NCBI GenBank assembly: GCA_051746185.1
Contig: JBNJEV010000001.1
Span: 88,201 to 152,200, forward strand
Length of the DNA: 64,000 bases
Direction: 5' to 3'
From: Bacteroidota bacterium
GTDB taxonomy: Bacteria; Bacteroidota; Bacteroidia; Bacteroidales; GCA-2748055
The position numbers and the translations under genes are program-made. Below are positions 20,573 to 44,243 of this stretch, piece by piece. The notes beneath the pieces are model-generated. The model saw only the letters and a list, made by a program, of their open reading frames with translations. It ran no database searches and was not told the origin of the DNA. Positions within the stretch are counted from its first letter, which is position 1, and the number at the start of each line of letters is the position of its first letter.

Positions 20573-20583
20573 ATGATCAGTAT

Positions 20584-20928
20584 TTAAGATTCAACAATCA
20601 GTGATTTGATTCTCAGTTCCCTTCCGGATTTGAATTCAAAGCGGTAGGATCCGCACCCCGGACAGGGCGAAACGGGCCCTTCCAGCGGAAAAACCTTGCC
20701 GCAATCCAGACATTGCCCGCTCGCCTTCACATGCTCGATGTCAAATTCTGCTTTCTCCAGCAAGGTATTCTGTGTACAGGTCTCCAGCGCATAATTCATG
20801 GCATCCAGGATCACTCCCGACAACTCCCCGATCTCCAGGTTTACCCTGAGGACCCTGTGCTTTCGTTCCCTGCGGGCATAATCCTCAGCGATCGAAACAA
20901 TATTTTTTGCGATCGAAAATTCGTGCAT
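20584..20928 (-). CDS. hypA: Hydrogenase nickel insertion protein HypA
   Basis: MHEFSIA N-terminus and CLDCG...CPGCGS zinc motif, 114 aa. Confidence 0.92.
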   Translation of the reverse strand: MHEFSIAKNIVSIAEDYARRERKHRVLRVNLEIGELSGVILDAMNYALETCTQNTLLEKAEFDIEHVKASGQCLDCGKVFPLEGPVSPCPGCGSYRFEFKSGRELRIKSLIVES

Positions 20929-20934
20929 TTTTAT

Positions 20935-22020: not shown

Positions 22021-23089
22021 ACCTGAATGCCGCCTGGCAACTTCCCTCTGCAGATACCATGCATGCCCCCACGGGCATCTCGGGTCTGCATACCTTTCTG
22101 AACAATTTGCAATCGGCCGGCTCTGAAATACCTCTCAAAATATCACCGCAGATGCACCCCGGGGGCTCCCGCGATGGTTCTATATCCACCCGGATCATCC
22201 CGGCTGCATCCAGGGAAGTGAATTCATCCCGCAACATCAACCCGCTCTTTTTCACCATTCCCAGACCCCGCCAGGAGGTATCTTCAGGCTGAAATACCCG
22301 GTTCATGATTTCCCGGGCCCTGGGATTACCATTCTTCTTTACCGCCCTTTTATAGGCATTCTCCACTCGGGGTTTGCGTTCGCGGACCTGCTTCAATAAC
22401 TGAAGGACCGCCAGCAGGATATCGGCCGGCTCGAATCCGGCGATCACGCAGCCTGTGTCATATCTCTCCGGGATGGACCGGTATATTTCTTCGCCGGTGA
22501 TCACACTCACATGCCCGGGACACAGGTACCCGTCAATGGAGAAGTCCTCACTGACCAGTAATTCCAGGGCAGGAGGCATCACTTTATGGGCTGAAAGGAT
22601 CAGGAAGTTCTGAAGCCGTTCCTGCACGGCCTGCAGAATGCCCGCTGCCGTTGAAGGTGCGGTTGTTTCAAATCCGATGGCCAGAAAAATGACCCTTTGC
22701 CCGGGATTCTGACGGGCAAGGGCAAGGGCTTCCGTAATGGAATATACCACCCGCACATCGGAGCCTGCCGCCCTGGCTTCCTGCAGGGTGGAAGTGGAAC
22801 CCGGCACGCGCAACAGGTCGCCGAAGGTGGTAATAATGATCTTTTCCAGGGAGGCCAGGGCAATGGCATGATCTATATAACCGACCGGTGTTACACAAAC
22901 CGGACATCCGGGACCGGAGATGAGCCTGACGCCCGGGGGCAGGACCGACCTGATATCATGCCGGTGTATGGCCATGGTATGCGTGCCGCACACTTCCATA
23001 AAGGTAACTTTCAGTTCGCCATATAAGGCGATCTCCCTCGCCAGACCATTGATCAGAGCCCTGTCCCGGTATTCACTGATATACTTCAT
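22004..23089 (-). CDS. hypD: Hydrogenase maturation protein HypD
   Basis: Motifs CGTHT-like (EVCGTHTMA), GPGCPVCVTP, FETTAP, and C-terminal Cys motifs. Confidence 0.92.
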   Translation of the reverse strand: MKYISEYRDRALINGLAREIALYGELKVTFMEVCGTHTMAIHRHDIRSVLPPGVRLISGPGCPVCVTPVGYIDHAIALASLEKIIITTFGDLLRVPGSTSTLQEARAAGSDVRVVYSITEALALARQNPGQRVIFLAIGFETTAPSTAAGILQAVQERLQNFLILSAHKVMPPALELLVSEDFSIDGYLCPGHVSVITGEEIYRSIPERYDTGCVIAGFEPADILLAVLQLLKQVRERKPRVENAYKRAVKKNGNPRAREIMNRVFQPEDTSWRGLGMVKKSGLMLRDEFTSLDAAGMIRVDIEPSREPPGCICGDILRGISEPADCKLFRKVCRPEMPVGACMVSAEGSCQAAFRYGNDG

Positions 23090-23310
23090 TTTTTTCCGGT
23101 CCGGTTCATTTCCCTGAGTAAACTGAGGGTTTCTTCTGCTTCTTCCGGATCGATGACCTGAATGGCAAACCCGGCATGCAGGAGCACATAATCGCCTTCC
23201 CGGACACCATCCAGTAACTGAATGCCTGCCTTATATGTGGTACCTGAAACAGATACAACCGCTGTATCGTTTTGTACCGAAATCACTTTTGCCGGAATAC
23301 TTAAACACAT
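23086..23310 (-). CDS. hypC: Hydrogenase assembly chaperone HypC
   Basis: MCLSIPAKV N-terminus (Cys2), 74 aa. ATGA overlap with hypD. Confidence 0.92.
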   Translation of the reverse strand: MCLSIPAKVISVQNDTAVVSVSGTTYKAGIQLLDGVREGDYVLLHAGFAIQVIDPEEAEETLSLLREMNRTGKK

Positions 23311-25625: not shown

Positions 25626-26260
25626 CCGCTTGTCTCCAAAACAATATTTTCAATATTGGCATAATGGATCACTCCCTCGAGCACATTACAAAGATTAATA
25701 TTATCGATCACAATTTCCGTGGGAGCCTTCAGAATGATCGGGGCAAAGTTCATGATCCCTTTAATGCCACACTCTATCAACTGATTGCATACATCCTGCG
25801 CGGAAATTGCGGGAACTGCGATAATGGCCACCTTGATCCCGTTTTCGTTAATGAAACGGGGCATCATTTCCATGGGAAGAACCAGCACATCACCACTCTT
25901 CTTGTATTTTGACGGATCGATGTCAAAGGCAGCTACAATATACTTTCTTTTTTCCATAAATCCGCATTCATACAGAGCCAGCGCCGTTCCGATGTTTCCC
26001 ATGCCAATGAGGATCACGTTTTCCTTCTCATTTTTTATAAAAATCCGGTTCAGATCCTCCAGTAATTCTTCTACAGAATATCCCCCTTTCTTCTTTCCCC
26101 GGATCTGAAACTTTGAGAAATCCTTCCGGACCTGCTCTGGGGTCACGCCGGCCTCCTTTCCCAGGTTATAAGAATATATTTTCTCAAATCCCATTTCCCT
26201 GAGGCGCACCAGGCACATCCTGTACTGGAGCAACCGTTTAATGCTGTTTTCAACTATCAT
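25622..26260 (-). CDS. rex: Redox-sensing transcriptional repressor Rex
   Basis: 212 aa. Winged-helix N-terminus (IKRLLQYRMCL), Rossmann motif ILIGMGNIGTAL, and C-terminal swap helix. The stop overlaps the hypF ATG (ATGA). Confidence 0.88.
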   Translation of the reverse strand: MIVENSIKRLLQYRMCLVRLREMGFEKIYSYNLGKEAGVTPEQVRKDFSKFQIRGKKKGGYSVEELLEDLNRIFIKNEKENVILIGMGNIGTALALYECGFMEKRKYIVAAFDIDPSKYKKSGDVLVLPMEMMPRFINENGIKVAIIAVPAISAQDVCNQLIECGIKGIMNFAPIILKAPTEIVIDNINLCNVLEGVIHYANIENIVLETSG

Positions 26261-26490
26261 TTATTGTACTTTTTTTCCCATTTTTTGCCGGAAGGCTCAA
26301 AGTATTTTTATGTTCTCAAACATGTTATCGTGATTTCAGAATTATAATAAAAATATATAACGCTCTAAAATACCAGTCATTACAGGTGTTTTATAAGGAC
26401 AGATATATTTTTCCGCTTTTTTTTATATGGCTAATTTATTATAATACTTGACACGTGTAAAGTTGAATCATACTTTTATTTTGCATTTAA

Positions 26491-26506
26491 TGTGAAAATG
26501 ATAACA
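26491..26506. promoter_or_regulatory. Candidate Rex operator (TGTGAA-N4-ATAACA) abutting the start codon at 26509
   Basis: TGTGAAAATGATAACA. One half-site equals the Rex consensus half TGTGAA; the other, TGTTAT, resembles the TTGTTAA variant. The same 16-bp pattern recurs twice at 44244-44303. Confidence 0.45.
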
Positions 26507-26508
26507 TA

Positions 26509-27516
26509 ATGCATCCGGACAGCTTTCTTATTTCCAAACAGAACTGGGATAGATTCCTGAAAGAAATCATCAATGAAAATGATTTGTGCGCACCTCTGGA
26601 ATCAGAAGGAAATAATGAGTACCAGCTCATACAGGAGGAAAAAGATATATCCCGCATTGTTTACAACCATCCCAAACCCACCTCACCATTAAAAACATTT
26701 TTTCTTCCTGTCAAGGAGAATGTAACCATCGATCACAGCAACCAGAAATTACGGATCATCCTGGGAGTGCCATCCTGTGATCTGGCCGGCCTTGGTTTGC
26801 TGGATGAAATGTATCTGCAGGAACCCCTTGTGGATCCTTATTATCAATCCAGGAGGGAAAACACATTGCTGATCGGAACGGATTGTCATTCCACACTGGA
26901 GCACTGTCACTGCACCTCTTACGGGATCAATCCTTTCCCTGAAGTAAATTTCGATCTGGGACTGGTCCGGTTGGACGATCAATTCTATGTGTATACCGGT
27001 TCGGAGAAAGGAAAAGCATTCATTAACCGGTACCGTGATGCAGGTTTTTTCTCACCTGTAAACGGGGAGGCGGAGAAAAAAGCAGATGCCTATCGTGAAC
27101 GGACCATAGAGGAACTGAAAGAAAAGAACAGCGGGTTGCCGGGATATGAGAAAACCGGCGAACTGATCAGGGAATCGGGCGAAGAGATCTGGAAGAAGTA
27201 TTCACGAACCTGTGTATCCTGCGGTGCCTGTGCCACCATATGCCCGACCTGTACCTGTTTTCTGCTCATTGACAGGACCGGATTTGAAAAGGTCAGGAAT
27301 CTGGATGCCTGTCAGTACCCTGGTTTTGAACGGGTAGCTGCCGGTGAGGACCCTCTTGGGGAACGGCATATTCGTTTCCGGAACCGCTACCTGTGCAAAT
27401 ATGTATGGAAACCTCAGGGCTTTGAATCCATTGCATGCACAGGTTGTGGCAGATGCATTGAGGCCTGTATAGGAAAGATCAACAAAAACGAGTTATTTGA
27501 AGAGTTATCTGCTTAA
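26509..27516 (+). CDS. Fe-S subunit resembling sulfhydrogenase beta (HydB) / anaerobic sulfite reductase AsrA
   Basis: 335 aa with CVSCGACATICPTCTCF and CTGCGRCIEAC cluster motifs. First gene of the hydrogenase operon. Confidence 0.7.
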   Translation: MHPDSFLISKQNWDRFLKEIINENDLCAPLESEGNNEYQLIQEEKDISRIVYNHPKPTSPLKTFFLPVKENVTIDHSNQKLRIILGVPSCDLAGLGLLDEMYLQEPLVDPYYQSRRENTLLIGTDCHSTLEHCHCTSYGINPFPEVNFDLGLVRLDDQFYVYTGSEKGKAFINRYRDAGFFSPVNGEAEKKADAYRERTIEELKEKNSGLPGYEKTGELIRESGEEIWKKYSRTCVSCGACATICPTCTCFLLIDRTGFEKVRNLDACQYPGFERVAAGEDPLGERHIRFRNRYLCKYVWKPQGFESIACTGCGRCIEACIGKINKNELFEELSA

Positions 27517-27527
27517 TCTTTAATGTG

Positions 27528-28376
27528 ATGCAGGAAGCTGAAACCATTACCAGACCGGCCCATGAAAATATCTACAAACCGATCCCGGCAACAGTGGACC
27601 GTGTGATCCAGGAATCGCCCACCATCAAGACTGTGGGGATGATACCGGAGCAGGAATTTCCCTTCCGCACAGGTGAATTCATAGAGGTTACCCTGCCCGG
27701 GATCGGCGAAGCACCCTTCACTCCCTCATCTTCGCCCCTGGAGACAAAACGCCTTGAGATCACCGTGATGAAAGCCGGTTATGTGACCAGCAGGATCCAT
27801 CAGCTGGAAAAAGGCGATGTGGTCGGGATCCGGGGGCCCTTCGGAAGGGGTTATCCGATGGACAAAATGTACGGTAAAGAGATCATCATTCTGGGAGGAG
27901 GTTGCGGATTCGCTCCCATCCGGTCTTTGCTCTACAACCTGATGGCCGAGAAAGATAAATTCAGGAAGGTCACTCTCTGTTACGGCTCCAAAACACCTGA
28001 AGAGTGTATTTACAAACCCTTTGTGGATGAACTCAGGGGCATCGACAAGTTCGATGTTTTCCGGAGCGTGGATAAACCTGACCAGTCATGGAATGAGGCT
28101 GTGGGAGTGGTCACCACCCTTCTGGATGACCTGAAGATGGATATACCCAATTCCATCGCCGTGATTGTAGGGCCACCCATCATGATGAAATTCGGAACCC
28201 AAAAAATACAGGAAATGGGGTTTCCTGATACGGAAATATACCTCTCGATGGAAAAAAACATGTCCTGCGGCCTGGGCAAATGCGGGCACTGCATGATGGG
28301 GAAATATTTTGTGTGTAAGGACGGACCCGTTTTTTCATACGAGGAAATCAAAGACCAGCCCGATATCTGGAAATAA
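27528..28376 (+). CDS. FAD/NAD(P)-binding oxidoreductase with C-terminal [2Fe-2S], resembling sulfhydrogenase gamma (HydG) / AsrB
   Basis: FNR-like fold: RTGEFIEV...PFTPSS (flavin site), IIILGGGCGFAP (nucleotide site), C-terminal CGLGKCGHCMMGKYFVCKDGPVF. Confidence 0.75.
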   Translation: MQEAETITRPAHENIYKPIPATVDRVIQESPTIKTVGMIPEQEFPFRTGEFIEVTLPGIGEAPFTPSSSPLETKRLEITVMKAGYVTSRIHQLEKGDVVGIRGPFGRGYPMDKMYGKEIIILGGGCGFAPIRSLLYNLMAEKDKFRKVTLCYGSKTPEECIYKPFVDELRGIDKFDVFRSVDKPDQSWNEAVGVVTTLLDDLKMDIPNSIAVIVGPPIMMKFGTQKIQEMGFPDTEIYLSMEKNMSCGLGKCGHCMMGKYFVCKDGPVFSYEEIKDQPDIWK

Positions 28377-28394
28377 CAATAACCGGTGTATGCC

Positions 28395-28865
28395 ATGAGT
28401 AAAAAAATTCTGGTCGATATGATCAAATTACGCGATTATGAGGATTTGCCCGTGGATGCCGTTTTTCGCTCGGGTCCTGTGAAGAACGGTCTGAAAACCA
28501 TCCGTGAAGAAGCCTCCTTCGAGTTTACCTGCCGCCGTTGCGAGGATGCTCCCTGCATCTCGGTCTGCCCGGCCGAAGCGCTGGAAAAAGATGACACCGG
28601 AAGGGTGATCCGGAACCTCAATCTGTGTATACGCTGTAAATCATGTATCATGATCTGTCCCTTCGGCACCCTGATGGATGATCTGTTTGAACTGAAGCCC
28701 AGGGAAAGGATCTTTGACCTGGATGATGAAAAGGACCTGGAAGTATTTATCAGTGCATGTCCCGAAGATACCGTAACTCTCTATGATGGCGAGGAAGATC
28801 CTGAAAAGAACATTTTCAGGCTGAACGACAGGGTCTGGGTGAAGGAACGCGTCTGGAATCAATAA
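28395..28865 (+). CDS. 2x[4Fe-4S] ferredoxin-domain protein
   Basis: CRRCEDAPCISVCP and CIRCKSCIMICP motifs. Confidence 0.75.
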   Translation: MSKKILVDMIKLRDYEDLPVDAVFRSGPVKNGLKTIREEASFEFTCRRCEDAPCISVCPAEALEKDDTGRVIRNLNLCIRCKSCIMICPFGTLMDDLFELKPRERIFDLDDEKDLEVFISACPEDTVTLYDGEEDPEKNIFRLNDRVWVKERVWNQ

Positions 28866-28878
28866 AATAAACAGATAC

Positions 28879-29811
28879 ATGCTCAAGGAACTGTTTTATT
28901 TTCTGGTGTATCCCGGCCTCCTCTTTGTAGGAGTTGCAGGGGGCCTGCTGTCGTGGTTTGACAGGAAGGTCACCGCCATGGTCCAATTCCGGAAGGGGCC
29001 TCCCCTGCTTCAGCCATTTTATGATTTTCTGAAACTGCTGCTGGTCAAAGAAACCATCCTTCCCGCCAGGGGATCGAAGATCACTTTTCTCCTGGCGCCT
29101 GTCTTCGGTCTGTTCGGAGCACTGATTGCCAGTGTGTTCATTCTTTTACCCCTGCTGGGGATACAGACCGGCTTCCAGGGAGATATCATCGTGATCTTCT
29201 ATTTGCTGACCATTCCTCCAATCTCCTATATGATCGGGGCGATGGCTTCGGGAAATCCCATGGCTTCTGTGGGTGCCTCACGTGAGATGAAACTGATCCT
29301 CAGCTACGAGCTTACCTTCATCCTGGTGCTCATGGCCGTGATCTTCAAGTCAGGCTACACCCTGAACCTATATGAGATCCTCGAACAGCAGGCCCGCCAG
29401 GGAGCATTTATCGGAAATATATCCGGGGTGATCCTGTTCGTTGTATCGATTTTCGTCATCCAGGCAAAACTGGGTCTGGTACCTTTTGATGTGGCTGAAG
29501 CTGAAGCCGAGATCAACCATGGTCCGTTTATTGAATATTCCGGCACGGCGTATGCCATCATCAAGCTTACCAAGTATATCATGCTGTTTACCCTTCCTGC
29601 CTTCGTGATCGCACTGTTCATGAAGGGTCTGGGCTGGAACGGGATAGAGATCCTGTGGTCGGTGCTGAAAATCCTCGGGGTGGTTCTTTTGCTCACGCTG
29701 ATCAGAAATACCAATCCGCGCCTGAAAATAAACCAGGCCATGAGGTTCTTCTTTATCTGGATGAATCTTCTGGTCATTGTAGCATTCGTATTGATCTTAA
29801 TCGGACTGTAA
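28879..29811 (+). CDS. Membrane-bound hydrogenase subunit, NuoH/MbhM/EchB-like
   Basis: 310-aa polytopic protein. DRKVTAMVQFRKGPPLLQPFYDFLKLL is the NuoH-family signature region. Confidence 0.88.
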   Translation: MLKELFYFLVYPGLLFVGVAGGLLSWFDRKVTAMVQFRKGPPLLQPFYDFLKLLLVKETILPARGSKITFLLAPVFGLFGALIASVFILLPLLGIQTGFQGDIIVIFYLLTIPPISYMIGAMASGNPMASVGASREMKLILSYELTFILVLMAVIFKSGYTLNLYEILEQQARQGAFIGNISGVILFVVSIFVIQAKLGLVPFDVAEAEAEINHGPFIEYSGTAYAIIKLTKYIMLFTLPAFVIALFMKGLGWNGIEILWSVLKILGVVLLLTLIRNTNPRLKINQAMRFFFIWMNLLVIVAFVLILIGL

Positions 29812-29825
29812 AAAATTATAGAATC

Positions 29826-30239
29826 TTGGCTTTCAAAGATTTCATATTCAAAAAATCTCTCTGGCTTTTCCATTTCGGGGGTGCATCCTGCAACAACTGC
29901 GACATAGAGATCCTGGATTGCCTGACCCCCCGTTATGATGTGGAACGTTTCGGTATGGTGCTGGTGGGAAGCATCCGGCATGCGGATGTCCTGCTGGTAA
30001 ACGGCTCCATCAACCAGAAGGACAAACCGCGGCTGCTGGAACTTTACAACCAGGCACCCAAACCCATTCTGGTGGTGGCCATCGGGGCCTGTGGCTGTAC
30101 CGGTGGGATTTTTGCCCAGGGGAATACGTTCGCCGGACCGGTGGACAAGATCATCCCGGTGGATGCATACATTCCGGGATGTCCTCCCAAGCCTGAAGCC
30201 ATTCTGGCCGGAATTGTCAAGTTGTTGAACAAAAAATAA
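29826..30239 (+). CDS. [NiFe]-hydrogenase small subunit, NuoB/MbhJ-like (probable TTG start)
   Basis: FHFGGASCNNCDIE, VVAIGACGCTGG and YIPGCPPKPEA are the NuoB-type proximal-cluster motifs. The long ORF start (29655) overlaps the previous gene; a TTG at 29826 follows its stop. Confidence 0.88.
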   Translation: MAFKDFIFKKSLWLFHFGGASCNNCDIEILDCLTPRYDVERFGMVLVGSIRHADVLLVNGSINQKDKPRLLELYNQAPKPILVVAIGACGCTGGIFAQGNTFAGPVDKIIPVDAYIPGCPPKPEAILAGIVKLLNKK

Positions 30240-30245
30240 ACGCTC

Positions 30246-30689
30246 ATGACTGATAGCCTTACCATTTTAGAAAGTGCCCGGAAAAAATACAGTGCCGATA
30301 TTCTGGAAACAGAAACAAAAAGTGGTAAAAGGGCAACGGTCACCATCAAACCCTCATCGCTGGTCAACATGGCCGGTTATTTGTTCCGGGATTTGAATTT
30401 ACGGTTTATTATCGCAACGGCTCTGCATACAAAACAGGGGATGGAGATCTATTATCATTTCTCGCATGATCCTTCCGGGCTGATCCTCAACCTGCATGTG
30501 ATCCTGCCCGAGGAAAAGCCGGAAATTGAATCACTAACCTGCATGTTCGAGGCGGCCAACTGGATCGAGCGAGAAATGCATGAGATCCTGGGTATCAACT
30601 TCCTGAACCATCCCAACCTGGAGAAACTGATATCTGAAGGCAACTGGGCAGAAGGTGTATATCCGTACAGAAAAGAATTCAATCATTAA
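30246..30689 (+). CDS. NuoC/MbhK-like hydrogenase subunit
   Basis: 147 aa. FEAANWIEREMHEILGINFLNHPN is typical of the NuoC/30-kDa family. Confidence 0.85.
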   Translation: MTDSLTILESARKKYSADILETETKSGKRATVTIKPSSLVNMAGYLFRDLNLRFIIATALHTKQGMEIYYHFSHDPSGLILNLHVILPEEKPEIESLTCMFEAANWIEREMHEILGINFLNHPNLEKLISEGNWAEGVYPYRKEFNH

Positions 30690-30695
30690 GAGAAC

Positions 30696-31889
30696 ATGGC
30701 AAGTCAAACCATCATACCGGTCGGTCCCTATCATCCACTGCAGGAGGAACCCGAACTTTTCAAGCTGTTCTGCGACGGGGAGATCGTAAAGGACATCAAG
30801 TGGGAGACCGGATACAACCACCGCGGCATTGAGAAGTTGAGCGAATCGAAGACCTTTGACCAGGTGTTTTTCCTTGTGGAGCGCATCTGCGGGATCTGCT
30901 CCACCTCGCATCCTTTTGCATTCGCCAATGCCATGGAAGAGATCTGTGAACTGGAGATCCCCAACCGGGTCAAATATATCCGTTCCATCATCGGAGAACT
31001 GGAAAGGCTCCACAGCCATCTTCTGTGGGTCGGACTGGCCGGGCATTTCCTGGGATACAACACCGTCTTCATGTGGGCCTGGAAATACCGGGAACCGATC
31101 CTCGATTTGTTTGAAATGATCTCGGGAAACCGGAACAGTTATGCCATGTTCAAGATCGGGGGGGTGCGCCGGGACATCCCCATGGATATGATCCCCGAGG
31201 TCGGGCGGAAGATGGACGAATTCAGGCCCAAGCTCGACCTGTTGACGGGCGCCGTCACCGATGACCCGGTAATCCATGCCCGTACCAAGGGAGTGGGCGT
31301 GCTTACCCGGCAGGATTGCATCGACTTTGCAGCGGTAGGACCTACCAGCAGGGCTTCGGGTATTATGCACGATGTGCGTTATGATGATCCTTACGCAGCC
31401 TATGACATGGTCGACTGGAAAGTGATTACCTCCAACGACGGGGATGTCTATGCCAAGGCTGAAGTGCGCCTGCTTGAAATGTATGAATCCATCTCCATCA
31501 TCATGCAGTGCCTGGAAGGCTTGAAAAAAGAACCTGAGGGCGATACCGGCATTCAGGTTAAAAACGTGCCCGAAGGAATGGGGAACGGGCGCGCAGAAGC
31601 ACCCCGGGGAGAGGTGTTTCACTGCGTATTCACCGACGGGGGTATTACCCCGGTACGTCATAAAATACGGGCACCCAGCTATGTCAACATTGCCACATTT
31701 AAAAAATCATGTGTGGGGCAAACCATCTCCGATGCCACCATTTCACTGGCAGCCGTGGATCCCTGCTATTGTTGTACCGAACGCATGTCCATGGCCTATG
31801 ATTACCATAATGGAAAGAAGATCCTGTCGGGCGAAGATCTGATCCGTTTATCACAGCAAAGGACCGAAGAGATAAGAAAGAAATTATAA
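30696..31889 (+). CDS. Group-4 [NiFe]-hydrogenase large subunit (NuoD/MbhL-like)
   Basis: 397 aa. The N-terminal Ni-Fe motif RICGICSTSH and the C-terminal DPCYCCTER are both intact. Confidence 0.9.
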   Translation: MASQTIIPVGPYHPLQEEPELFKLFCDGEIVKDIKWETGYNHRGIEKLSESKTFDQVFFLVERICGICSTSHPFAFANAMEEICELEIPNRVKYIRSIIGELERLHSHLLWVGLAGHFLGYNTVFMWAWKYREPILDLFEMISGNRNSYAMFKIGGVRRDIPMDMIPEVGRKMDEFRPKLDLLTGAVTDDPVIHARTKGVGVLTRQDCIDFAAVGPTSRASGIMHDVRYDDPYAAYDMVDWKVITSNDGDVYAKAEVRLLEMYESISIIMQCLEGLKKEPEGDTGIQVKNVPEGMGNGRAEAPRGEVFHCVFTDGGITPVRHKIRAPSYVNIATFKKSCVGQTISDATISLAAVDPCYCCTERMSMAYDYHNGKKILSGEDLIRLSQQRTEEIRKKL

Positions 31890-31899
31890 AGCTTCTGTT

Positions 31900-33729
31900 A
31901 TGGACGAACTTTATTATATCATTTTCCTTCCCATTGTGGCAGGGATCCTTTTGTTCCTGATCCCTGAAAAAGTCAAGTGGATCAAAGGAACTTTCACATT
32001 GCTCGTCTCTGCCATATCCCTGCTGTTCGCCATCCGGCTGTATCAGCAACCAAACGGGATCTTCACCCTGAACCTGTTTTCTGTGAACCAGGAAGTCAAT
32101 GCCTTCTCCACATATCATATCGACAATCTCAGCAGGTTTATTACTCTGTCCATATGTGCCTTTGGTGTACTCATATCACTATACTCGCTTCTCTATGTGA
32201 CCCGGCAAATGAAGATCCGGAATTACTATGCCTATTTCCTGCTTACCGTAGGTTTATCAGCCGGAGCTGCGCTGACTGATAATCTGTTGTTGTTCCTGTT
32301 TTTCTGGGGAATCCTGGCAATCACCCTCTACAAGCTCATCAGGGGGTATGACCAGGAAAGTTCAGATGCAGCAAAAAAGAGCCTGGTCATGATCGGATCC
32401 TCCGACGGCATGATGATCCTGGGTATTGGTATCATCTGGAAAACATACGGAACCCTGTCCATTTCGGAACTGCATATACCAACCAATACCCCGATCCTGG
32501 TGCTCGCCTTCGTTTCCCTGTTGATCGGCAGTTTTACAAAAGCCGGCGCTTTCCCTTTTCATACCTGGATCCCTGATTACGTCAAAAAAGCTCCCGCATC
32601 ATCATCCGCCTACCTCCCGGCATCCCTTGACAAGCTACTGGGGATTTACTTTTTGGCCCGGATCTGCATAGACATGTTCACCCTGAACCAGTGGCTTACC
32701 TTTACCATGTTGCTTCTGGGTGTGATGACCATCATTTTTGCAGTAATGATGGCATTGATCCAGCATAACTATAAGCGTCTTCTGGGATATCATGCCGTAT
32801 CCCAGGTTGGATATATGGTGGTGGGACTCGGTTTGGGAACACCCATTGGCATTGCAGGAGGATTGTTTCACATGATCAACCACGCGATCTATAAATCCGG
32901 CTTATTTCTTGCCGCAGGAAATGTGGAAAAGGCTACGGAAAAAGAAGAACTGGATGATCTGGGTGGACTGGCAAAGGCCATGCCTGTCACATTTATAACC
33001 GCGCTGATATTTGCACTCTCCATCTCGGGTGTTCCTCCGTTTAATGGTTTTGCCTCAAAATGGATCATTTACCAGGGTATTATCGATTTTGGAAAAGAAC
33101 CGGGCATAGCCTCTCAATTATGGTACGTTTGGCTTGGACTGGCAGTACTGGGTTCAGCGCTGACCCTGGCATCCTTTCTCAAATTCATTGCAGGGATATT
33201 TTTGGGACGCAAGAAAAAAGAGCTTGAAAAAACCAGGGAAGTAAGTCCCCTGATGTGGATACCCAATCTGATCCTGGCATTGTTCTGTGTTGGTTTTGGG
33301 GTTTTTGCCGCCACATGGGTTGTTCCGAGAATCATCATGCCGCTTCATGTGGAATTTGAATATGTGGGTATCTGGCAGTCAACCACTGTCTCCGTACTTA
33401 TCCTGGTATCAATTGTGCTGGGTGTGATCTTTTACCTGATCGGGAACATAAAAAGGTTCCGGGTTGATGAGAGTTTTATCGGCGGGGAGACCAACCGGGA
33501 TGAAGTCAGCTATCCGGTAGTGGATTTTTACAAAACCATCAGCGAATCCGGATTCTTCTCGGCCATTTACCGACGTGCTGAAAGAAAATGGTTCGATATT
33601 TATGATCTCGGCCGGTGGTTTGTACTGTACCTCGGAAATTGGTTCAGCCGGGCACATACGGGCATACTGACCGCCTATGCCATCTGGCTGTTCGCCGGGC
33701 TGGTAATTTTAATGTTACTGCTGTTCTGA
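31900..33729 (+). CDS. Large antiporter-like subunit (NuoL/MrpA/MbhH-like)
   Basis: 609 aa, approx. 16 TM segments. Carries proton-conducting membrane transporter motifs (HAVSQVGYMV, LFHMINHAIYKSGLFL). Confidence 0.85.
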   Translation: MDELYYIIFLPIVAGILLFLIPEKVKWIKGTFTLLVSAISLLFAIRLYQQPNGIFTLNLFSVNQEVNAFSTYHIDNLSRFITLSICAFGVLISLYSLLYVTRQMKIRNYYAYFLLTVGLSAGAALTDNLLLFLFFWGILAITLYKLIRGYDQESSDAAKKSLVMIGSSDGMMILGIGIIWKTYGTLSISELHIPTNTPILVLAFVSLLIGSFTKAGAFPFHTWIPDYVKKAPASSSAYLPASLDKLLGIYFLARICIDMFTLNQWLTFTMLLLGVMTIIFAVMMALIQHNYKRLLGYHAVSQVGYMVVGLGLGTPIGIAGGLFHMINHAIYKSGLFLAAGNVEKATEKEELDDLGGLAKAMPVTFITALIFALSISGVPPFNGFASKWIIYQGIIDFGKEPGIASQLWYVWLGLAVLGSALTLASFLKFIAGIFLGRKKKELEKTREVSPLMWIPNLILALFCVGFGVFAATWVVPRIIMPLHVEFEYVGIWQSTTVSVLILVSIVLGVIFYLIGNIKRFRVDESFIGGETNRDEVSYPVVDFYKTISESGFFSAIYRRAERKWFDIYDLGRWFVLYLGNWFSRAHTGILTAYAIWLFAGLVILMLLLF

Positions 33730-33748
33730 ATAAAAAAATACCTGTACC

Positions 33749-34306
33749 ATGGAAGCGATCCTTACCGTTGTTCTGATTTTTATGATTCTGGGTGCGATAT
33801 ACTCCCTGCATGCAAAGGATCTGCTGTCGGCCCTGATCTCTATGGGGATTGTGGGATACGGACTGGTGATATGTTTTCTTTTGCTCAAGGCACCTGACCT
33901 GGCCATTGTCCAGATCCTGGTGGAGACCATTACCCTGGTGATCATGGTGTCGGTAGTGCTCGACAGCACGAGACATGAATTGAAAGAAAAAGCTGCCATC
34001 AAACATGAGGGGGAGCCTTTCATCAATTCCAGGTTTGTTGGAAACATTTTCATCGGTGTACTGATCTCCCTGGTACTGTTTTACACTTATCATTTCGCCA
34101 TTGAGAACCTGACCCCTTTCGGCGAGCATGTCATGCGTATGTCAGGGGCCTATCTGGAAGATCCGGCTAACCAAACCGGAAGCGCCAACATGGTCACCGG
34201 GGTGCTGTTCGATTACAGGGGCTATGATACGCTCGGGGAGGCGACCATACTGGTGACAGCGGTGGTGGGTGTACTGACGGTATTAAGATTGAAAGGGAGA
34301 AAATAA
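33749..34306 (+). CDS. Fused MbhD-like (DUF4040) and MbhE/MnhB-N-like membrane subunit
   Basis: The N-terminal half has [12 protein letters not shown]. The C-terminal half has [22 protein letters not shown], typical of the MrpA-C/MrpB region. Confidence 0.7.
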
Positions 34307-34319
34307 AAATAGTTATGTC

Positions 34320-34757
34320 ATGAAAGGAATGTCGATCATCGTAAAAAAAGTTGCTCAGTTTTTATCCGGACTGATCTTCATGTACGGGATCTATATTATC
34401 ACCCATGGTCATCTCACACCGGGGGGCGGCTTTGCCGGTGGAGCCATCCTGGCAGGCTCAATGATCCTCCTGGTACTGGCGTTTGGCAGTGATGTCATGG
34501 GATTGAAAAAAAGGGAAACGGGTTCATCCATCATTGAGAACTCGGCCATTCTGGCTTTCCTTGTTTTTGCCGTTGGTGCCATGCTCATCGGCACCCATGT
34601 TTTCTTCCATAATTTTCTGCCCCGGGGTAACCTGGGCGATCTTATCAGTGCAGGGGTCATTCCGCTTTATAACATTTTCGTGGGTATTGAAGTGGGTGCC
34701 GCCCTGTTTACCATATTCCTGGCATTGGTTATTTATAAAGAAGAGGTTTTAAAATGA
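34320..34757 (+). CDS. MnhB/MrpB (MbhF-like) subunit
   Basis: HGHLTPGGGFAGGAILAG motif, 145 aa, 4 TM segments. Confidence 0.75.
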   Translation: MKGMSIIVKKVAQFLSGLIFMYGIYIITHGHLTPGGGFAGGAILAGSMILLVLAFGSDVMGLKKRETGSSIIENSAILAFLVFAVGAMLIGTHVFFHNFLPRGNLGDLISAGVIPLYNIFVGIEVGAALFTIFLALVIYKEEVLK

Positions 34758-35092
34758 TACTGTATCTGCTTTGTTTTCTGTTGTTTCTGATCGGCCTTTA
34801 CGGAGTAGTGACCCGGAGGAATGTAATTAAGATCGTGATCGGACTGGTTTTCATGGAATTCAGTGTTTTCCTGATGCTGGTATTGATCGGCTATGTGGAA
34901 AAGGGCCATGCTCCCATTGTCGATGAAGCGGTGGCCACCGGTCCCTTTGTTGATCCGTTGCCGCAGGCCATGGTACTTACGGCGATCGTGATCGGACTGG
35001 CAGCCAACGCCATGTTGCTGGCAATCGCCATCAGGCTGTATAAGAAATATGGAACGTTTGATATCCGGAAAATCAATCAACTTAAAGGATAA
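34754..35092 (+). CDS. MrpC/NuoK (MbhG-like) subunit
   Basis: 112 aa, 3 TM segments. GLYGVVTRRNVIKIVIGL.ME is the NuoK-family pattern. Confidence 0.8.
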   Translation: MILYLLCFLLFLIGLYGVVTRRNVIKIVIGLVFMEFSVFLMLVLIGYVEKGHAPIVDEAVATGPFVDPLPQAMVLTAIVIGLAANAMLLAIAIRLYKKYGTFDIRKINQLKG

Positions 35093-35096
35093 TCAC

Positions 35097-36635
35097 ATGA
35101 GTCAGCTCATTCCACTTTTTGTCATTTTACCCCTGGCTGCCGCTTTCCTGATCCCAATTATCGGGAAATTCCTGGAAGGATTCCAGAAGGCTGTTTCTTC
35201 GCTGGTCTTTCTTTTTCTGAGTGTGCTGGCCTTATATTTCATTTGTTCCGGACTCACCACGCCCATTACATACGCAGTAGGGGGTTGGAAACCTGTGGAA
35301 GGGATCCCCATAGCCATTTACCTGGTGGCCGATGGGCTGAGTGTTGTTATGCTCATCATTATCAATGTGATGGGATTCCTTTCCGGCTTTTATGCCATTT
35401 CCTATTTAAAGAGATTTACGGCACAGAACAATTTTTATGCACTCTTTTGCCTGATGATAGCGGGGATGAACGGTGTGGTGCTGACCGGAGATCTGTTTAA
35501 CCTTTATGTTTTCATGGAAATAGCCGTGATCGCTTCTTACGCACTTGTGGCTTTCGGAATTGAAAAAAATGAGCTTGAGGCTTCCTTTAAATACCAGGTT
35601 CTGGGCGGCATTGCTTCCGTGCTAATTCTTTTCGGAGTGGCTTTGCTTTACTGGAAAACCAAAACACTAAATATTGCCGATGCCGGTCATATGCTGAAGA
35701 AGACTCCAGACCGATCGTTCATCATCTTTACCCAGTTATTCCTGATCGCCGGTTTTGGACTCAAGGCAGCCCTGATCCCGTTCCACGCATGGCTGCCTGA
35801 TGCACATTCGTCAGCCCCATCGCCCATTTCAGCTATGCTTTCCGGAGTTCTGATCAAAGCAGTAGGGATCTATTGCATTATCAGGCTATTTTTCAATATG
35901 TTCGAGATCTCTTACGAATTGCCGGTAACGATCGCTGCACTCGGGGCACTGTCCATGGTCATTGGTGTTTTTCTTGCGATCATCCAGTGGGATCTTAAAA
36001 GGTTATTTGCCTACCACAGCATCAGTCAGATGGGGTATGTCATGACAGGTATTGGAATGGGGATGATCATCATGTCCAGGGGAGGCGATCCCAAAGTTGC
36101 TGCGCTGGCACTGGCCGGGGGTTTATTTCATCTGATCAACCATGCGGTATTCAAAGGATTGCTGTTTCTCAACGCCGGCGCTCTTGAATTTAAATGTCAT
36201 ACACGCAACCTGCTTAAAATGGGAGGCATGTGGAAACAAATGCCGGTTACCTACTCGACTTCCCTGAGTGCATCCATGGCCATATCGGGGATACCTCCTT
36301 TTAACGGTTTCTTCAGCAAACTGATGATCATTATTGCAGCGATCCAGGGGAATTTTTACCTGCTGGCAATCCTGGCCATACTGGTCAGCATATTGACCCT
36401 CGGCTCATTTCTGAAGTTTCAGAAATATGCATTCTTTAACAAACCCGGGAACCCCGATAGACAAAATATCAGCGAGGTTCCTTTTACCATGTGTTTTTCT
36501 ATGATTGTCCTGGCACTGTTATGCCTGGGACTGAGCCTGCTCATCTTCCCGGGGATCAGGGAGATCATACTGGACCCGGCGGTCAATGTCATCATGAATT
36601 CAACAGAATACGCATTATCCATAACAAGCATATAA
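35097..36635 (+). CDS. Second large antiporter-like subunit (MrpD/NuoN/NuoM-like)
   Basis: About 512 aa from MSQLIPLF. Contains AALIPFHAWLPDAH and LFHLINHAVFKGLLFL. Confidence 0.85.
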   Translation: MSQLIPLFVILPLAAAFLIPIIGKFLEGFQKAVSSLVFLFLSVLALYFICSGLTTPITYAVGGWKPVEGIPIAIYLVADGLSVVMLIIINVMGFLSGFYAISYLKRFTAQNNFYALFCLMIAGMNGVVLTGDLFNLYVFMEIAVIASYALVAFGIEKNELEASFKYQVLGGIASVLILFGVALLYWKTKTLNIADAGHMLKKTPDRSFIIFTQLFLIAGFGLKAALIPFHAWLPDAHSSAPSPISAMLSGVLIKAVGIYCIIRLFFNMFEISYELPVTIAALGALSMVIGVFLAIIQWDLKRLFAYHSISQMGYVMTGIGMGMIIMSRGGDPKVAALALAGGLFHLINHAVFKGLLFLNAGALEFKCHTRNLLKMGGMWKQMPVTYSTSLSASMAISGIPPFNGFFSKLMIIIAAIQGNFYLLAILAILVSILTLGSFLKFQKYAFFNKPGNPDRQNISEVPFTMCFSMIVLALLCLGLSLLIFPGIREIILDPAVNVIMNSTEYALSITSI

Positions 36636-36636
36636 T

Positions 36637-37122
36637 ATGAGATACGTAGGACTTTCTATCATCCTGTTCGGGTTCTGGTTGCTGCTCACCTTTGATCTCT
36701 CCGCAAACAATCTGATCGTGGGAGGGATTGCAGCATTGCTGGTCTCTTCCTACTTCGGCCGTTTTTTCATTCGGAGATACCGGAAGATGGCCGATCCGCG
36801 CCGGTATTTCTGGTTCATCGTCTATATTGTGGTCTTTGTGTGGGAATGCCTGAAGGCCAATTTTGACGTAGCTTACCGGGTGCTGCATCCCGCCATGCCC
36901 ATTAAACCGGGCATCGTGAAGGTCCGACTGGCGCTGAAAACGAATATTGCACGCACCATTTTGGCCAGCTCCATTACCATGACACCCGGCACCATTACCG
37001 TGGATATTATCGATGATTTTATTTACATACACTGGATCTATGTAAGCAGCACCGAGGCTGCAGTGTACGGTGAAAAAGTATCCGGCAGATTTGAAAAATA
37101 CCTAAAACGCATATTCGAATGA
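36637..37122 (+). CDS. MrpE/MnhE-like subunit
   Basis: 161 aa. Two N-terminal TM segments followed by NFDVAYRVLHPAMPIKPGIV...TLASSITMTPGT, typical of MnhE. Confidence 0.75.
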   Translation: MRYVGLSIILFGFWLLLTFDLSANNLIVGGIAALLVSSYFGRFFIRRYRKMADPRRYFWFIVYIVVFVWECLKANFDVAYRVLHPAMPIKPGIVKVRLALKTNIARTILASSITMTPGTITVDIIDDFIYIHWIYVSSTEAAVYGEKVSGRFEKYLKRIFE

Positions 37123-37385
37123 ACACCTTTCTGCATATTATCCTTTATGCGCAGATCCTCCTGTGTTTTTTTTGCCTGTACCGTGTGGTAAGAGGTCCGA
37201 CCATCCCAGACCGGATGGTGGGCATTGATATTTTCGGGATCCTGGTTGTGGGGATCTGCGCCATTCTGACCATTATGACCGGCAGGACTTTTATCATTGA
37301 TATCGGGATTGCCTGGATCATCCTGAGCTTTATCGGAACACTGACACTGGCAAAATACTTAAGTAAACAGAAGTTAAATGAGTAG
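37119..37385 (+). CDS. MrpF/MnhF-like subunit
   Basis: 88 aa, 3 TM segments. RVVRGPTIPDRMVGID is the MnhF pattern. Confidence 0.75.
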   Translation: MNTFLHIILYAQILLCFFCLYRVVRGPTIPDRMVGIDIFGILVVGICAILTIMTGRTFIIDIGIAWIILSFIGTLTLAKYLSKQKLNE

Positions 37386-37746
37386 TACAGACATTATCAG
37401 CCTTGTTTTACTGGTCATCGGGATCCTGTTCAACCTGTTCGGGTGCATCGGCCTGATCCGACTGCCCGATGTTTATAACCGGCTGCAATCGGCCACCAAA
37501 TGTGTTACCCTGGGTACCTGCAGCATCCTCCTGAGCCTGATCTTTTATTTCGGCTTTAATGTAACCGGCGTGAAAGGCCTGGTCGCTATCCCCCTGCTGT
37601 TCTTCGGGGCCACTGTGGCCGCTCACGCGCTGGCCCGGGGATCCTATCTATTCGGGATAAAACTGGGAGGAGGAAGCATCAAGGACGATTTCAGGGAAAA
37701 GGCTGAAGCGGAAGCAAAAAAGCAGAAAGATCATGAAATATCCTAA
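37378..37746 (+). CDS. MrpG/MnhG-like subunit
   Basis: 122 aa. GCIGLIRLPDVYNRLQSATK is the MnhG signature. Confidence 0.78.
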   Translation: MSSTDIISLVLLVIGILFNLFGCIGLIRLPDVYNRLQSATKCVTLGTCSILLSLIFYFGFNVTGVKGLVAIPLLFFGATVAAHALARGSYLFGIKLGGGSIKDDFREKAEAEAKKQKDHEIS

Positions 37747-38344
37747 ACTGAGAGAACTGAAAGAGGCCATACATTCCCTGGTTTCACCGGCGTACACCAC
37801 CGGGTTCCCGGCAGAATCCCACCGGCCTGCAAAAAATTACCGGGGAAAGCCTGTGGTGGACGATGCCAACTGCGTGGGCTGCGAGACATGTACCAATGTA
37901 TGCCCCAGCGGGGTGATCACCTTTGAGGACGACCGGGAAAACAGGAAGCGGATCATTGTACGGGACTATGGCCTCTGCATTTTCTGCGGGCAATGTGAAG
38001 AGCACTGCATTACCGGAAAAGGCATCAGGCTTTCCGATGAGATCTATGACATGGCCAATTTTGACCGGAAAGAGCTGGTCGAAACACAGGAAAAAGAGCT
38101 GCTGGTCTGTGAGAGCTGCGGTGCGGTGATCACTACCCGCGAGCACATGGAATTCATGCATAAAAAGCTTGGTCCCAGAGCATATTCTTCCATTCTCGAT
38201 CTCAACATGCTGAATGAAAAACTCCGGCTGGCCTCCCGGGAAGATACCGGCACAGAGGTTAAAGACGGGTTGAAGCGAAAAGACATGTTCAACATCATCT
38301 GTCCCAATTGCCTGAGAAAAATTCTCATCACCCTCAGCTATTGA
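37733..38344 (+). CDS. 2x[4Fe-4S] subunit, NuoI/MbhN-like
   Basis: CVGCETCTNVCP and CIFCGQCEEHC motifs, plus a C-terminal extension with further Cys pairs (CESCG, CPNC). Confidence 0.8.
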   Translation: MKYPKLRELKEAIHSLVSPAYTTGFPAESHRPAKNYRGKPVVDDANCVGCETCTNVCPSGVITFEDDRENRKRIIVRDYGLCIFCGQCEEHCITGKGIRLSDEIYDMANFDRKELVETQEKELLVCESCGAVITTREHMEFMHKKLGPRAYSSILDLNMLNEKLRLASREDTGTEVKDGLKRKDMFNIICPNCLRKILITLSY

Positions 38345-38802
38345 TGCATGGACTAAAAAATCTGCCCGATCCCGCTGCAAACCGCCTGCTTTTCGTTGGA
38401 ATCGGAAATCTCCTGAAAAAGGATGACGGGGTGGGGGTTTATATTTCCGAAAGGATCAGGGAAACAAAAAATATCATTAAACTTACGGTAGAAGTAAGCA
38501 TTGAGAACTATATCGGAAAGATCAACCGGATCAATCCCGATCATTTGATCCTGATCGACTGCATGAATTTTAACAAGCAGCCCGGTTACTTCAGACTTCT
38601 CCCCGTTGAGCAGGTACGGTCCCATGCCGTAAGCACCCACCATATTTCCCTGAAACAGGTGTCCGAATTGTTCAGGATGCCGGTCTGGGTGCTGGGAATC
38701 CAACCCCGGGACACCTCATTCGGAGAGAACCTGAGCCCGGAGGTCAAACGTTCGGCCGACCTGATCATTCACGAACTGGGAAGGGCGCTCCCTGAGACCT
38801 GA
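38344..38802 (+). CDS. Hydrogenase maturation endopeptidase (HycI/HyaD family)
   Basis: LLFVGIGNLLKKDDGVGV, LILIDC and STHHISL are protease metal-ligand motifs. The ATG overlaps the preceding TGA. Confidence 0.85.
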   Translation: MHGLKNLPDPAANRLLFVGIGNLLKKDDGVGVYISERIRETKNIIKLTVEVSIENYIGKINRINPDHLILIDCMNFNKQPGYFRLLPVEQVRSHAVSTHHISLKQVSELFRMPVWVLGIQPRDTSFGENLSPEVKRSADLIIHELGRALPET

Positions 38803-42523: not shown

Positions 42524-42538
42524 TTATGCAACCTTTCA

Positions 42539-43699: not shown

Positions 43700-43719
43700 C
43701 AGTTCCTTTTTTGATGCTT

Positions 43720-44190: not shown

Positions 44191-44243
44191 GAATACTCAA
44201 ATTTTTTATATGTGATTGAAATAATGCTAGTTATATTTCTTTC

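Follow-up and report, generated by a model that had tools for sequence, protein, structure and literature searches.

A Bacteroidales Hun-type [NiFe]-hydrogenase–Mrp operon with a sulfhydrogenase-like flavoprotein module: a candidate NAD(P)H-linked, Rex-controlled, ion-translocating hydrogenase

Organization of the hun operon

The subject of this work is a 64,000-nucleotide stretch of DNA (hereafter, the window) from a Bacteroidales bacterium of the lineage GCA-2748055 (GenBank assembly GCA_051746185.1, contig JBNJEV010000001.1, positions 88,201–152,200 of the forward strand). At positions 26509–38802 of the window, the list of open reading frames (ORFs) contains 17 consecutive and intact ORFs on the plus strand (Table 1), which almost certainly represent a Bacteroidales Hun-type complex, i.e., sixteen hun genes for a [NiFe]-hydrogenase joined to an Mrp-like antiporter and one gene for a HycI-type maturation endopeptidase. 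The products of the first three genes, HunA, HunB, and HunC, resemble the electron-transfer subunits of soluble sulfhydrogenases and may feed the membrane complex with electrons from NAD(P)H. An earlier reading made from the letters of the same DNA alone (the original prediction) had described the operon as 17 same-strand genes with junctions of 19 nt or less or overlapping ends. This description was exact, its family assignments were all confirmed by Pfam and NCBIfam searches, and the motifs it quoted from HunB and HunG are all found in the translations.

The junctions from hunA to the HycI gene measure, in order, +8, +9, +13, +14, +6, +6, +10, +19, +13, and −4 nt and, continuing from hunK/hunL, +1 (or an overlap), +1, −4, −8, −14 nt, and a final overlap, the widest one lying at 33729/33749. 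The values next to hunE assume a TTG start at 29826. Indeed, the ORF of this NuoB-like gene, open from 29655, lacks an in-frame ATG ahead of the conserved part, so the TTG codon, which lies 14 nt past the preceding stop and gives a protein of normal length, was taken as the start. The letters H to O of the hun genes were assigned from the gene order.

A scan with sigma-70 and intrinsic-terminator consensus patterns detected no terminator-like site at the 28865/28879 junction between hunC and hunD, where the original prediction had considered that a terminator might separate the input genes from the hydrogenase genes. Such patterns are weak evidence in Bacteroidota and uninformative for Bacteroidota promoters: promoter-like matches were not commoner than in shuffled sequences (21 and 21.1, respectively) and the excess of terminator-like matches was modest (25 versus 15.3). 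Given this weakness, the scan counts merely as no contrary evidence.

Table 1. Annotated features of the window (positions are those of the 64,000-nucleotide stretch).
Feature	Position	Strand	Assignment and supporting matches
hunA	26509..27516	+	Fe-S subunit like sulfhydrogenase beta (HydB/ShyB) and AsrA; Pfam Fer4_22
hunB	27525..28376	+	FAD/NAD(P) flavoprotein with C-terminal [2Fe-2S]; like HydG/ShyC, AsrB, PyrK, NfnA
hunC	28386..28865	+	Small 2x[4Fe-4S] connector ferredoxin of HycB/HydN/CooF type; Pfam Fer4 families
hunD	28879..29811	+	NuoH/MbhM-like membrane anchor; Pfam NADHdh 6e-63
hunE	29826..30239	+	NuoB/MbhJ-like small subunit; Pfam Oxidored_q6 3.7e-32
hunF	30246..30689	+	NuoC/MbhK-like; Pfam Complex1_30kDa 5e-22
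hunG	30696..31889	+	[NiFe] large subunit, NuoD-like; Pfam Complex1_49kDa and NiFeSe_Hases
hunH	31900..33729	+	MrpA-N-terminal/NuoL-like antiporter subunit; Pfam Proton_antipo_M 1.6e-57; NCBIfam antiporter subunit A/D and NuoL families
hunI	33749..34306	+	Fused MbhD+MbhE-like (MrpA C-terminal part); Pfam MbhD 3e-17, MbhE 2e-8
hunJ	34320..34757	+	MrpB/MnhB-like; Pfam MnhB 2.9e-22
hunK	34754..35092	+	MrpC/NuoK-like; Pfam Oxidored_q2 2.3e-29
hunL	35049..36635	+	MrpD-like antiporter subunit; Pfam Proton_antipo_M 1.5e-62; NCBIfam antiporter subunit D 3e-120; alternative ATG 35094
hunM	36637..37122	+	MrpE-like; Pfam MNHE 2.8e-42
hunN	37119..37385	+	MrpF-like; Pfam MrpF_PhaF 3.5e-14
hunO	37378..37746	+	MrpG-like; Pfam PhaG_MnhG_YufB 1e-21
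hunP	37733..38344	+	NuoI/HycF-like 2x[4Fe-4S]; Pfam Fer4_7 and related families
HycI-type endopeptidase gene	38308..38802	+	Hydrogenase maturation; Pfam HycI 9e-11; TIGR00072 87.6 bits (cut-off 47.45); alternative ATG 38344
Predicted Rex operator	26490..26507	.	Palindrome ATGTGAAAATGATAACAT; ends 2 nt before the hunA ATG
rex	25622..26260	-	Redox-sensing repressor, divergent from hunA; NCBIfam Rex equivalog NF003996 207 bits (cut-off 138)
hypF-hypC-hypD-hypE-hypA-hypB	19709..25625	-	[NiFe] maturation set, downstream of rex on the same strand
hydA	40724-42523	-	NCBIfam 'NADH-dependent [FeFe] hydrogenase, group A6' 867 bits (cut-off 765)
hydB	42539-43699	-	NuoF-like; HydABC-type [FeFe] hydrogenase operon
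hydC	43720-44190	-	NuoE-like 2Fe-2S; first gene of the HydABC-type [FeFe] hydrogenase operon

Relation to the described Hun complexes

The gene arrangement, which the original prediction had implied to be new, is already known and named. Glass et al. (2021; bioRxiv 10.1101/536078) described a putative 16-subunit operon, Hun, as a hydrogenase–Na+/H+ antiporter supercomplex consisting of the AsrA/AsrB-like HunAB, the ferredoxin HunC, the hydrogenase proper (HunEFGP), and otherwise Mrp-like subunits. Their HunG falls into HydDB group 4g and has an unusual CGIC...CYCC signature. The operon was reported from Atribacteria, Firmicutes, Omnitrophica, Elusimicrobia, Bacteroidetes, and the cultured Kosmotoga, with Bacteroidetes metagenome-assembled genomes (MAGs) and White Oak estuary ('SM') samples shown in the neighbourhood figure (bioRxiv 10.1101/536078). 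All of the gene features of Hun are present in the window, namely hunAB at the 5' end, hunC before the NuoH-like gene, the CGIC/CYCC signature, and sixteen subunits. These are the same genes in the same order, without structural difference, except that the window operon ends with the HycI gene and is flanked by rex and the hyp genes.

The model of Glass et al. has ferredoxin as the electron donor and couples H2 evolution to H+/Na+ translocation, with Rex unmentioned (bioRxiv 10.1101/536078). HydDB likewise labels group 4g as 'ferredoxin-coupled (putative)' and lists its role as undetermined, and Williams et al. (2021), who found a "Group 4g" hydrogenase "linked to Mrp" in Ca. Tenebribacter mawsonii, assumed a ferredoxin donor as well. 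A different hint came from Saganbacteria, where Matheus Carnevali et al. (2019; PMC6349859) noted cooF-, asrA-, and asrB-like genes beside an Mrp-linked group-4 hydrogenase, which, according to their Supplementary Note 5, "may play similar roles" to nuoE-/nuoF-like genes. The NAD(P)H-linked function considered below thus differs from the published ferredoxin model and agrees with the latter hint. The original prediction had foreseen that this gene order might turn out to be biochemically characterised as ferredoxin-only; the published ferredoxin assignment is itself a prediction. What is added here, by sequence comparison, is the apparent structural homology of HunAB to the beta-gamma pair of sulfhydrogenase I, the conservation of nucleotide-binding motifs across phyla, and a predicted cross-phylum linkage to Rex.

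Conservation of the operon across genomes

Conserved HunA peptides were searched against one genome per species of the GTDB collection. At least 515 stretches encode a HunA relative, and the best 80 loci were kept for comparison by tblastn of all window proteins. The order hunA-B-C-D-E-F-G-H... was kept in all 80 loci as far as each contig reaches, so that AsrA/AsrB-like genes invariably stand upstream of the NuoH-like gene. The hunC–hunD junction had a median of 10 nt and was no longer than 30 nt in 68 of 75 loci. This conserved, tightly packed linkage across phyla reinforces the single-unit reading of the original prediction, and a single transcription unit is predicted. Most of the loci belong to Bacteroidales, and the others are labelled as Cloacimonadota, Actinomycetota, Latescibacterota, Aerophobetes, Omnitrophota, and Neomarinimicrobiota; HunA identity in the loci labelled non-Bacteroidota ranged from 37 to 48%. 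One of the relatives (L001) is Bacteroides sp. SM23_62_1 from the White Oak estuary. Another, the Ca. Tenebribacter mawsonii MAG (L062), has the same synteny and a HunG 71% identical to that of the window; this orthology, together with the 4g class of the HunG of Glass et al., suggests that the window HunG belongs to group 4g. In a search for large-subunit homologues, no cultured organism was named among the top 120 matches, and every match with a name came from a MAG. The HunA search yielded a cultured isolate, Marinilabiliaceae bacterium JC017 (L081, GCA_004296775.1), with the same gene order.

Several loci depart from the compact layout. In some 13 to 15 Bacteroidota loci besides L025 (for example L021, L023, L043, L048, L051–L054, L057, L059, and L061), there is an extra gap of about 480–550 nt between hunB and hunC, which the window operon does not have. 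In L025, the only one inspected, this gap encodes a protein of 151 amino acids (11864–12319) with a Pfam cNMP_binding domain (1.2e-8), which could be a sensor or regulatory subunit. In a Bacteroidales MAG (L022, 13322–18647), 5.3 kb are inserted between hunD and hunE, including two genes with type IX secretion C-terminal sorting domains, one of them also with a Peptidase_M43 domain; this is either a real disruption of the operon or a MAG assembly artefact.

The HunABC input module

HunA is related to three NCBIfam families, ShyB (5e-50), HydB (7e-36), and AsrA (4e-34), with scores far under all the family cut-offs (170 against 690 for the ShyB equivalog). Its match to the beta subunit of the Pyrococcus furiosus sulfhydrogenase I (PDB 9nez_B, E = 7e-32) extends over residues 8–324 with the conserved cysteines aligned, and 16 cysteines are invariant among the 18 orthologues compared. 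HunB combines the Pfam domains FAD_binding_6, NAD_binding_1, and DHODB_Fe-S_bind and carries the sequences GGGCGFAP and CGLGKCGHC..C. It matches the gamma subunit of the same enzyme (9nez_C, E = 1.3e-45, residues 43–280), and this full-length match to a solved homologue fixes its fold. Its further PDB matches are pyridine-nucleotide flavoproteins, namely NfnA (4ylf_A, 2.5e-18), PyrK, NqrF, cytochrome b5 reductase, and FNR. Binding of NAD(P)(H) at the flavin is common to HydG, AsrB, PyrK, and NfnA.

The alignment of the window HunB with 77 orthologues (78 sequences) had only 80 of 283 columns conserved at 95% or more. The FAD motifs GEAPFTPSS, GxVT, and RGPxG, the nucleotide loop GGGxGxAPxR, the GPPxMMKF motif, and the cysteines of the 2Fe-2S cluster (CGxGxCxxC..C) all reach this level. 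The FAD, NAD(P), and 2Fe-2S motifs persist in every phylum sampled, down to about 50% overall identity.

HunC has its best PDB matches in HycB4 (7qv7_B, 1.8e-12) and Escherichia coli HycB (7z0s_B, 4.6e-10) and is also near HycB3; HycB4 and HycB3 belong to the hydrogen-dependent CO2 reductase. Its counterpart at the other end of the operon, HunP, has the 'formate hydrogenlyase complex iron-sulfur subunit' as its best NCBIfam family (4.5e-28). According to Pfam and NCBIfam, HunABC are without a recognisable catalytic subunit of their own, i.e., neither AsrC nor a group-3 large or small subunit is present.

The hydrogenase core and the membrane arm

HunG retains both cysteine pairs of the NiFe site in the motifs RICGICSTSH and DPCYCCTER, the latter kept in 63 of 64 HunG orthologues, and its closest PDB matches are MbhL (6cfw_L, 4e-79) and HycE (7z0s_E, 1.3e-75). 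The group-3 models ShyA and HydA gave only 3.7e-9 and 1e-4, far under their cut-offs. The 33 residues past DPCYCCTER align with the C-terminal tail of HycE, which is removed by HycI, and the HycI gene at the end of the operon fits HunG. HunE has the four cysteines for the proximal cluster. The complete hyp set next door includes HypF (TIGR00143, 772 bits) and HypD (TIGR00075, 449 bits), with the other hyp genes recognized by the Pfam domains HupF_HypC, AIRS/AIRS_C (HypE-like), HypA, and cobW/HypB. Judging from its NiFe motifs, the HycE-like tail, the HycI gene, and this hyp set, HunG is probably a true hydrogenase large subunit. Two subunits of the operon, HunH and HunL, belong to Proton_antipo_M. 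Overall, the predicted architecture is a peripheral arm of the formate hydrogenlyase/Mbh type on a full Mrp-like membrane arm, with the beta-gamma pair in the position of FdhF.

Comparison with other known complexes

The closest solved relative of HunG belongs to the group 4d complex Mbh of P. furiosus (PDB 6CFW), a ferredoxin-to-H2 ion pump that, like Hun, has a NuoB/C/D/H/I-like peripheral arm and Mrp-derived membrane subunits. Hun differs from it by three extra cytoplasmic genes, one of them for a flavoprotein, and by CYCC instead of CxxC. In Mbh, the genes for the 14 subunits (mbhA-N) begin with the Mrp-like ones, and only one antiporter-like subunit is encoded. The two Proton_antipo_M subunits, the hydrogenase genes preceding the Mrp genes, and the flavoprotein gene exclude the window operon from Mbh. 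Mbx and Mbs can be rejected because the NiFe cysteine pairs are kept in the NuoD-like subunit and HycI and hyp genes are present. Complex I is likewise rejected, given the retained NiFe ligands and the lack of NuoE, NuoF, and NuoG in the operon, the NuoE- and NuoF-like genes of the window belonging to hydCBA.

HunA and HunB are full-length homologues of the beta and gamma subunits of the group 3b sulfhydrogenase I (PDB 9NEZ/9NF0), with the cysteine ligands and FAD/NAD(P) motifs kept. Unlike in sulfhydrogenase I, the module sits on a membrane complex, and its NCBIfam scores are far under the equivalog cut-offs. A soluble group 3b enzyme is rejected, since there is no group-3 alpha (large) or delta (small) subunit and the large subunit matches MbhL/HycE. 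The gene order hunA-hunB, AsrA-like then AsrB-like, is also that of the anaerobic sulfite reductase AsrABC; this was rejected as well, with no siroheme AsrC gene among the 17 and scores below the cut-offs (TIGR02910, 118 versus 323; TIGR02911, 198 versus 289). Flavin-based bifurcation of the Nfn type would need an NfnB/GltD-like subunit, which is lacking; HunB corresponds to NfnA, the non-bifurcating subunit of Nfn.

The likeness to the E. coli formate hydrogenlyase (group 4a, PDB 7Z0S) extends from the HunG–HycE match, tail included, to the HycB-like HunC and HycF-like HunP, a pair of connectors that in formate hydrogenlyase stands between FdhF and the hydrogenase. The window operon is nevertheless not a formate hydrogenlyase: it has no FdhF or molybdopterin gene, and Hun adds the full Mrp-like membrane arm. 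Some Hun loci elsewhere do carry an FdhF/molybdopterin subunit between hunB and hunC.

Predicted control by Rex

The original prediction had reported a Rex gene and Rex-like operators next to the operon. The gene is clearly identified by its equivalog score (Table 1), and a Rex homologue stands divergently upstream of hunA in most Bacteroidota loci; in L075 and L077, it lies just upstream of hunA on the same strand. In the window, rex is the first gene of the minus-strand string rex-hypFCDEAB, and this succession of rex and a complete hyp set on one strand may form one divergent unit facing hun.

The operators needed a more sensitive search. With a strict Rex consensus (up to three mismatches), no site was found in the rex–hunA spacer, and the window total was 6 against 3.7 expected. 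A matrix built from 95 sites of relatives and scored at 63,983 positions of the window, in comparison, ranked the palindrome in front of hunA (26490–26507, 15.4 bits) second. This site had been missed by the strict search because it matches only 10 of 14 consensus positions. Only three positions of the window exceed 9.0 bits, namely 26490–26507, 44287–44304, and 44243–44260, the fourth-best reaching only 9.0 bits. The original claim of operators thus failed by strict consensus and stands by the matrix of the relatives.

Among the relatives, 64 of the 77 sequences preceding hunA contain a site of the 18-bp type TTGTGAAnnnnTTCACAA with at least 11 of 14 positions matched, versus 11% of shuffled controls. 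The sites take two fixed positions, one abutting the hunA start and one beside the divergent rex, and in the non-Bacteroidota loci L075 to L078 they match perfectly or almost perfectly. The start of the window rex is adjoined by a weak Rex-like site only (26264–26281, 5.1 bits), whereas the relatives have strong ones there. With the Rex protein and a predicted operator, the hun operon appears to be a member of a Rex regulon.

The two other sites above 9.0 bits lie 53–114 nt upstream of hydC, the first gene of an operon for a trimeric NADH/ferredoxin [FeFe] hydrogenase of the HydABC type (40724–44190, minus strand), located 2 kb downstream of hun. Since the top three sites thus front hunA and hydCBA, one Rex probably controls both hydrogenases.

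Two further features of the neighbourhood are recorded. Beyond hydC and divergent from it, starting 171 nt past the second Rex-like site, there is a pair of plus-strand genes (44475–46089) for a BlaI-type repressor (Penicillinase_R) and a BlaR1-like Peptidase_M56 protein with a TonB C-terminal domain. The segment 12001–16000 of the window has a G+C content of 0.37–0.41 versus about 0.48–0.52 elsewhere and may be foreign or atypical DNA.

The electron donor of Hun

An important question for Hun is whether its electrons come from ferredoxin, as has been assumed, or from a pyridine nucleotide. The homology of HunAB to sulfhydrogenase and other pyridine-nucleotide enzymes, the conservation of the HunB motifs, and the Rex linkage favor NAD(P)H. 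On this evidence, Hun would act as a reversible NAD(P)H:H+ oxidoreductase that couples its reaction to the movement of Na+/H+ and is derepressed through Rex, with the venting of NADH as H2 as its main role. We give this reading a probability of roughly 0.55. The gene content, the homologies, the conserved motifs, the synteny, and the conservation and placement of the Rex sites are observed; from them, we infer the donor, the preference for NADH or NADPH, the subunit contacts, the direction, and the translocated ion alike.

In such a complex, the group-4g-type [NiFe] module (HunD, E, F, G, and P) would be joined to the complete Mrp-like antiporter module (HunH to HunO), with HunA-HunB-HunC sitting on the cytoplasmic tip. 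HunA would hold several [4Fe-4S] clusters, HunB the FAD, the pyridine-nucleotide site, and a [2Fe-2S] cluster, and HunC would be the connector ferredoxin. NAD(P)H would reduce the FAD of HunB, from where electrons would pass through the [2Fe-2S] cluster of HunB to the clusters of HunA and on through HunC, HunP, and HunE to the NiFe site of HunG, where protons would be reduced to H2. Coupling near the HunG/HunD interface would drive Na+/H+ movement through the Mrp-like subunits. The NADH/H2 couple is close to equilibrium at the H2 levels of sediments, and the complex is therefore expected to be reversible, with its direction set by the ion gradient. At high H2, the gradient would push the electrons of NADH onto protons, while energy would be conserved when H2 is very low or when the complex runs as an uptake enzyme from H2 to NAD(P)+. 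For NADH to H2 under standard conditions, about +18 kJ/mol is quoted in the literature (PMC7064455). Rex would repress hun at a low NADH/NAD+ ratio and release it when NADH accumulates. Such derepression, together with the Rex-flanked HydABC in the same fermenter, makes the venting of NADH as H2 the most likely role.

Several points weigh against an NAD(P)H-linked Hun. Published models assume reduced ferredoxin, and the literature searched for Hun biochemistry or an NAD(P)H-linked Mrp–Mbh complex yielded genomic predictions only. H2 evolution from NAD(P)H would spare little or no energy for pumping except at very low H2, and HunC and HunP could dock ferredoxin directly. The conservation of the HunB motifs reflects selection on the flavoprotein fold, by which neither the identity of the nucleotide nor its role as donor or acceptor is given. 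Moreover, the end of beta-strand 2 in the NAD(P) domain reads G-[AS]-[KR]-T-P-x-[DE], which is ambiguous for NADH versus NADPH. Rex control is not specific either, as Rex regulons include ferredoxin-dependent enzymes, and the operator in front of the window hunA is degenerate. In JC017, hun has gaps of 420, 243, and 489 nt after hunA, hunB, and hunF, respectively, and no adjacent rex, a hint of different regulation in this possible experimental system. Finally, the NADH/ferredoxin HydABC only 2 kb away would make a second route of NADH venting partly redundant.

These points bear on three other ways to explain the locus. In the model proposed by Glass et al. (bioRxiv 10.1101/536078), Hun would be a ferredoxin-driven pump like Mbh: ferredoxin reduced by pyruvate:ferredoxin oxidoreductase would donate to HunC, HunP, or HunA, H2 evolution would drive the export of Na+/H+, and HunAB would be a mere Fe-S/flavin wire or docking platform. 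The HydDB label of group 4g and the MAG papers on the same complex take this side, the closest solved relatives of the core, Mbh and formate hydrogenlyase, are given as ferredoxin-dependent, and on general thermodynamic grounds exergonic ferredoxin-driven H2 evolution suits an ion pump more naturally. A flavoprotein of the FNR type is, however, unnecessary for the oxidation of ferredoxin, and few parts of HunB are as well conserved in all phyla sampled as the GGGxGxAP loop and the other motifs of the NAD(P) domain. The remaining HunB matches in NCBIfam and PDB are to pyridine-nucleotide flavoproteins, and the supply of AsrAB with electrons from ferredoxin is an annotation rather than a measurement. 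We consider the ferredoxin pump unlikely.

The same low weight is given to a branched complex, in effect an Mbh fused to the beta-gamma pair of sulfhydrogenase I, where ferredoxin would be the main donor and HunAB a side exit reducing NAD(P)+ from the Fe-S chain or from H2 to supply reduced nucleotide. The homology of HunAB to these two subunits and the presence of the ferredoxin-type HunC and HunP agree with it, and so does the role usually assigned to the P. furiosus sulfhydrogenase I, the recycling of H2 into NADPH. With derepression by Rex at high NADH, such a complex would make still more reduced nucleotide, a poor fit if NAD+ is the acceptor though of no consequence in the case of NADP+. 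The coupling site would be skipped by electrons that exit through HunAB, and the nucleotide specificity of HunB can be read either way from its sequence. It is far less probable that HunABC form a separate soluble oxidoreductase, co-transcribed but undocked, such as an NAD(P)H-dependent reductase of sulfur, polysulfide, or another acceptor. Its sulfhydrogenase and AsrAB relatives are indeed soluble, one with sulfur-reductase activity, and an acceptor bound by HunA is conceivable, given that the hydrogenase is the only catalytic partner in sight. Against this stand the place of the three genes directly upstream of hunD, kept in all 80 loci across phyla with junctions near 10 nt, the absence of AsrC and of the group-3 large and small subunits, and the HycB-type HunC, since in formate hydrogenlyase such a connector bridges to a HycF-like subunit, to which HunP compares.

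Implications

A bolder version of the NAD(P)H-linked reading, which we hold with slightly less than even confidence, is that Hun works as a reversible NAD(P)H:proton oxidoreductase that translocates Na+/H+, which would be the first group-4 hydrogenase linked to pyridine nucleotides. Independently of NuoEFG, an FNR/sulfhydrogenase beta-gamma module would have given rise to its NAD(P)H-oxidising head, and the enzyme, switched by NADH through Rex, would be found widely among Bacteroidota of sediments and digesters and in several candidate phyla. If so, Hun would in effect be a complex I with protons in the place of quinone, and a pyridine-nucleotide module would have been attached to an Mbh/complex-I-type pump for a second, independent time. 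The ferredoxin model of the literature would then be wrong or incomplete.

Of the large classes of energy-converting hydrogenases, group 4g is the only one whose role HydDB leaves undetermined. Hun-type operons are very common, occurring in Bacteroidales of sediments, lakes, and digesters and in Cloacimonadota, Omnitrophota, and other candidate phyla, and metabolic reconstructions currently book them as ferredoxin-dependent H2 producers. The question is testable, as there are cultured carriers (Kosmotoga, according to Glass et al., and JC017) and a solved homologous beta-gamma module. Should the NAD(P)H-linked function hold true, the picture of these communities would have to be revised, from H2 yields and redox balance to the energetics of their fermentation and syntrophy.

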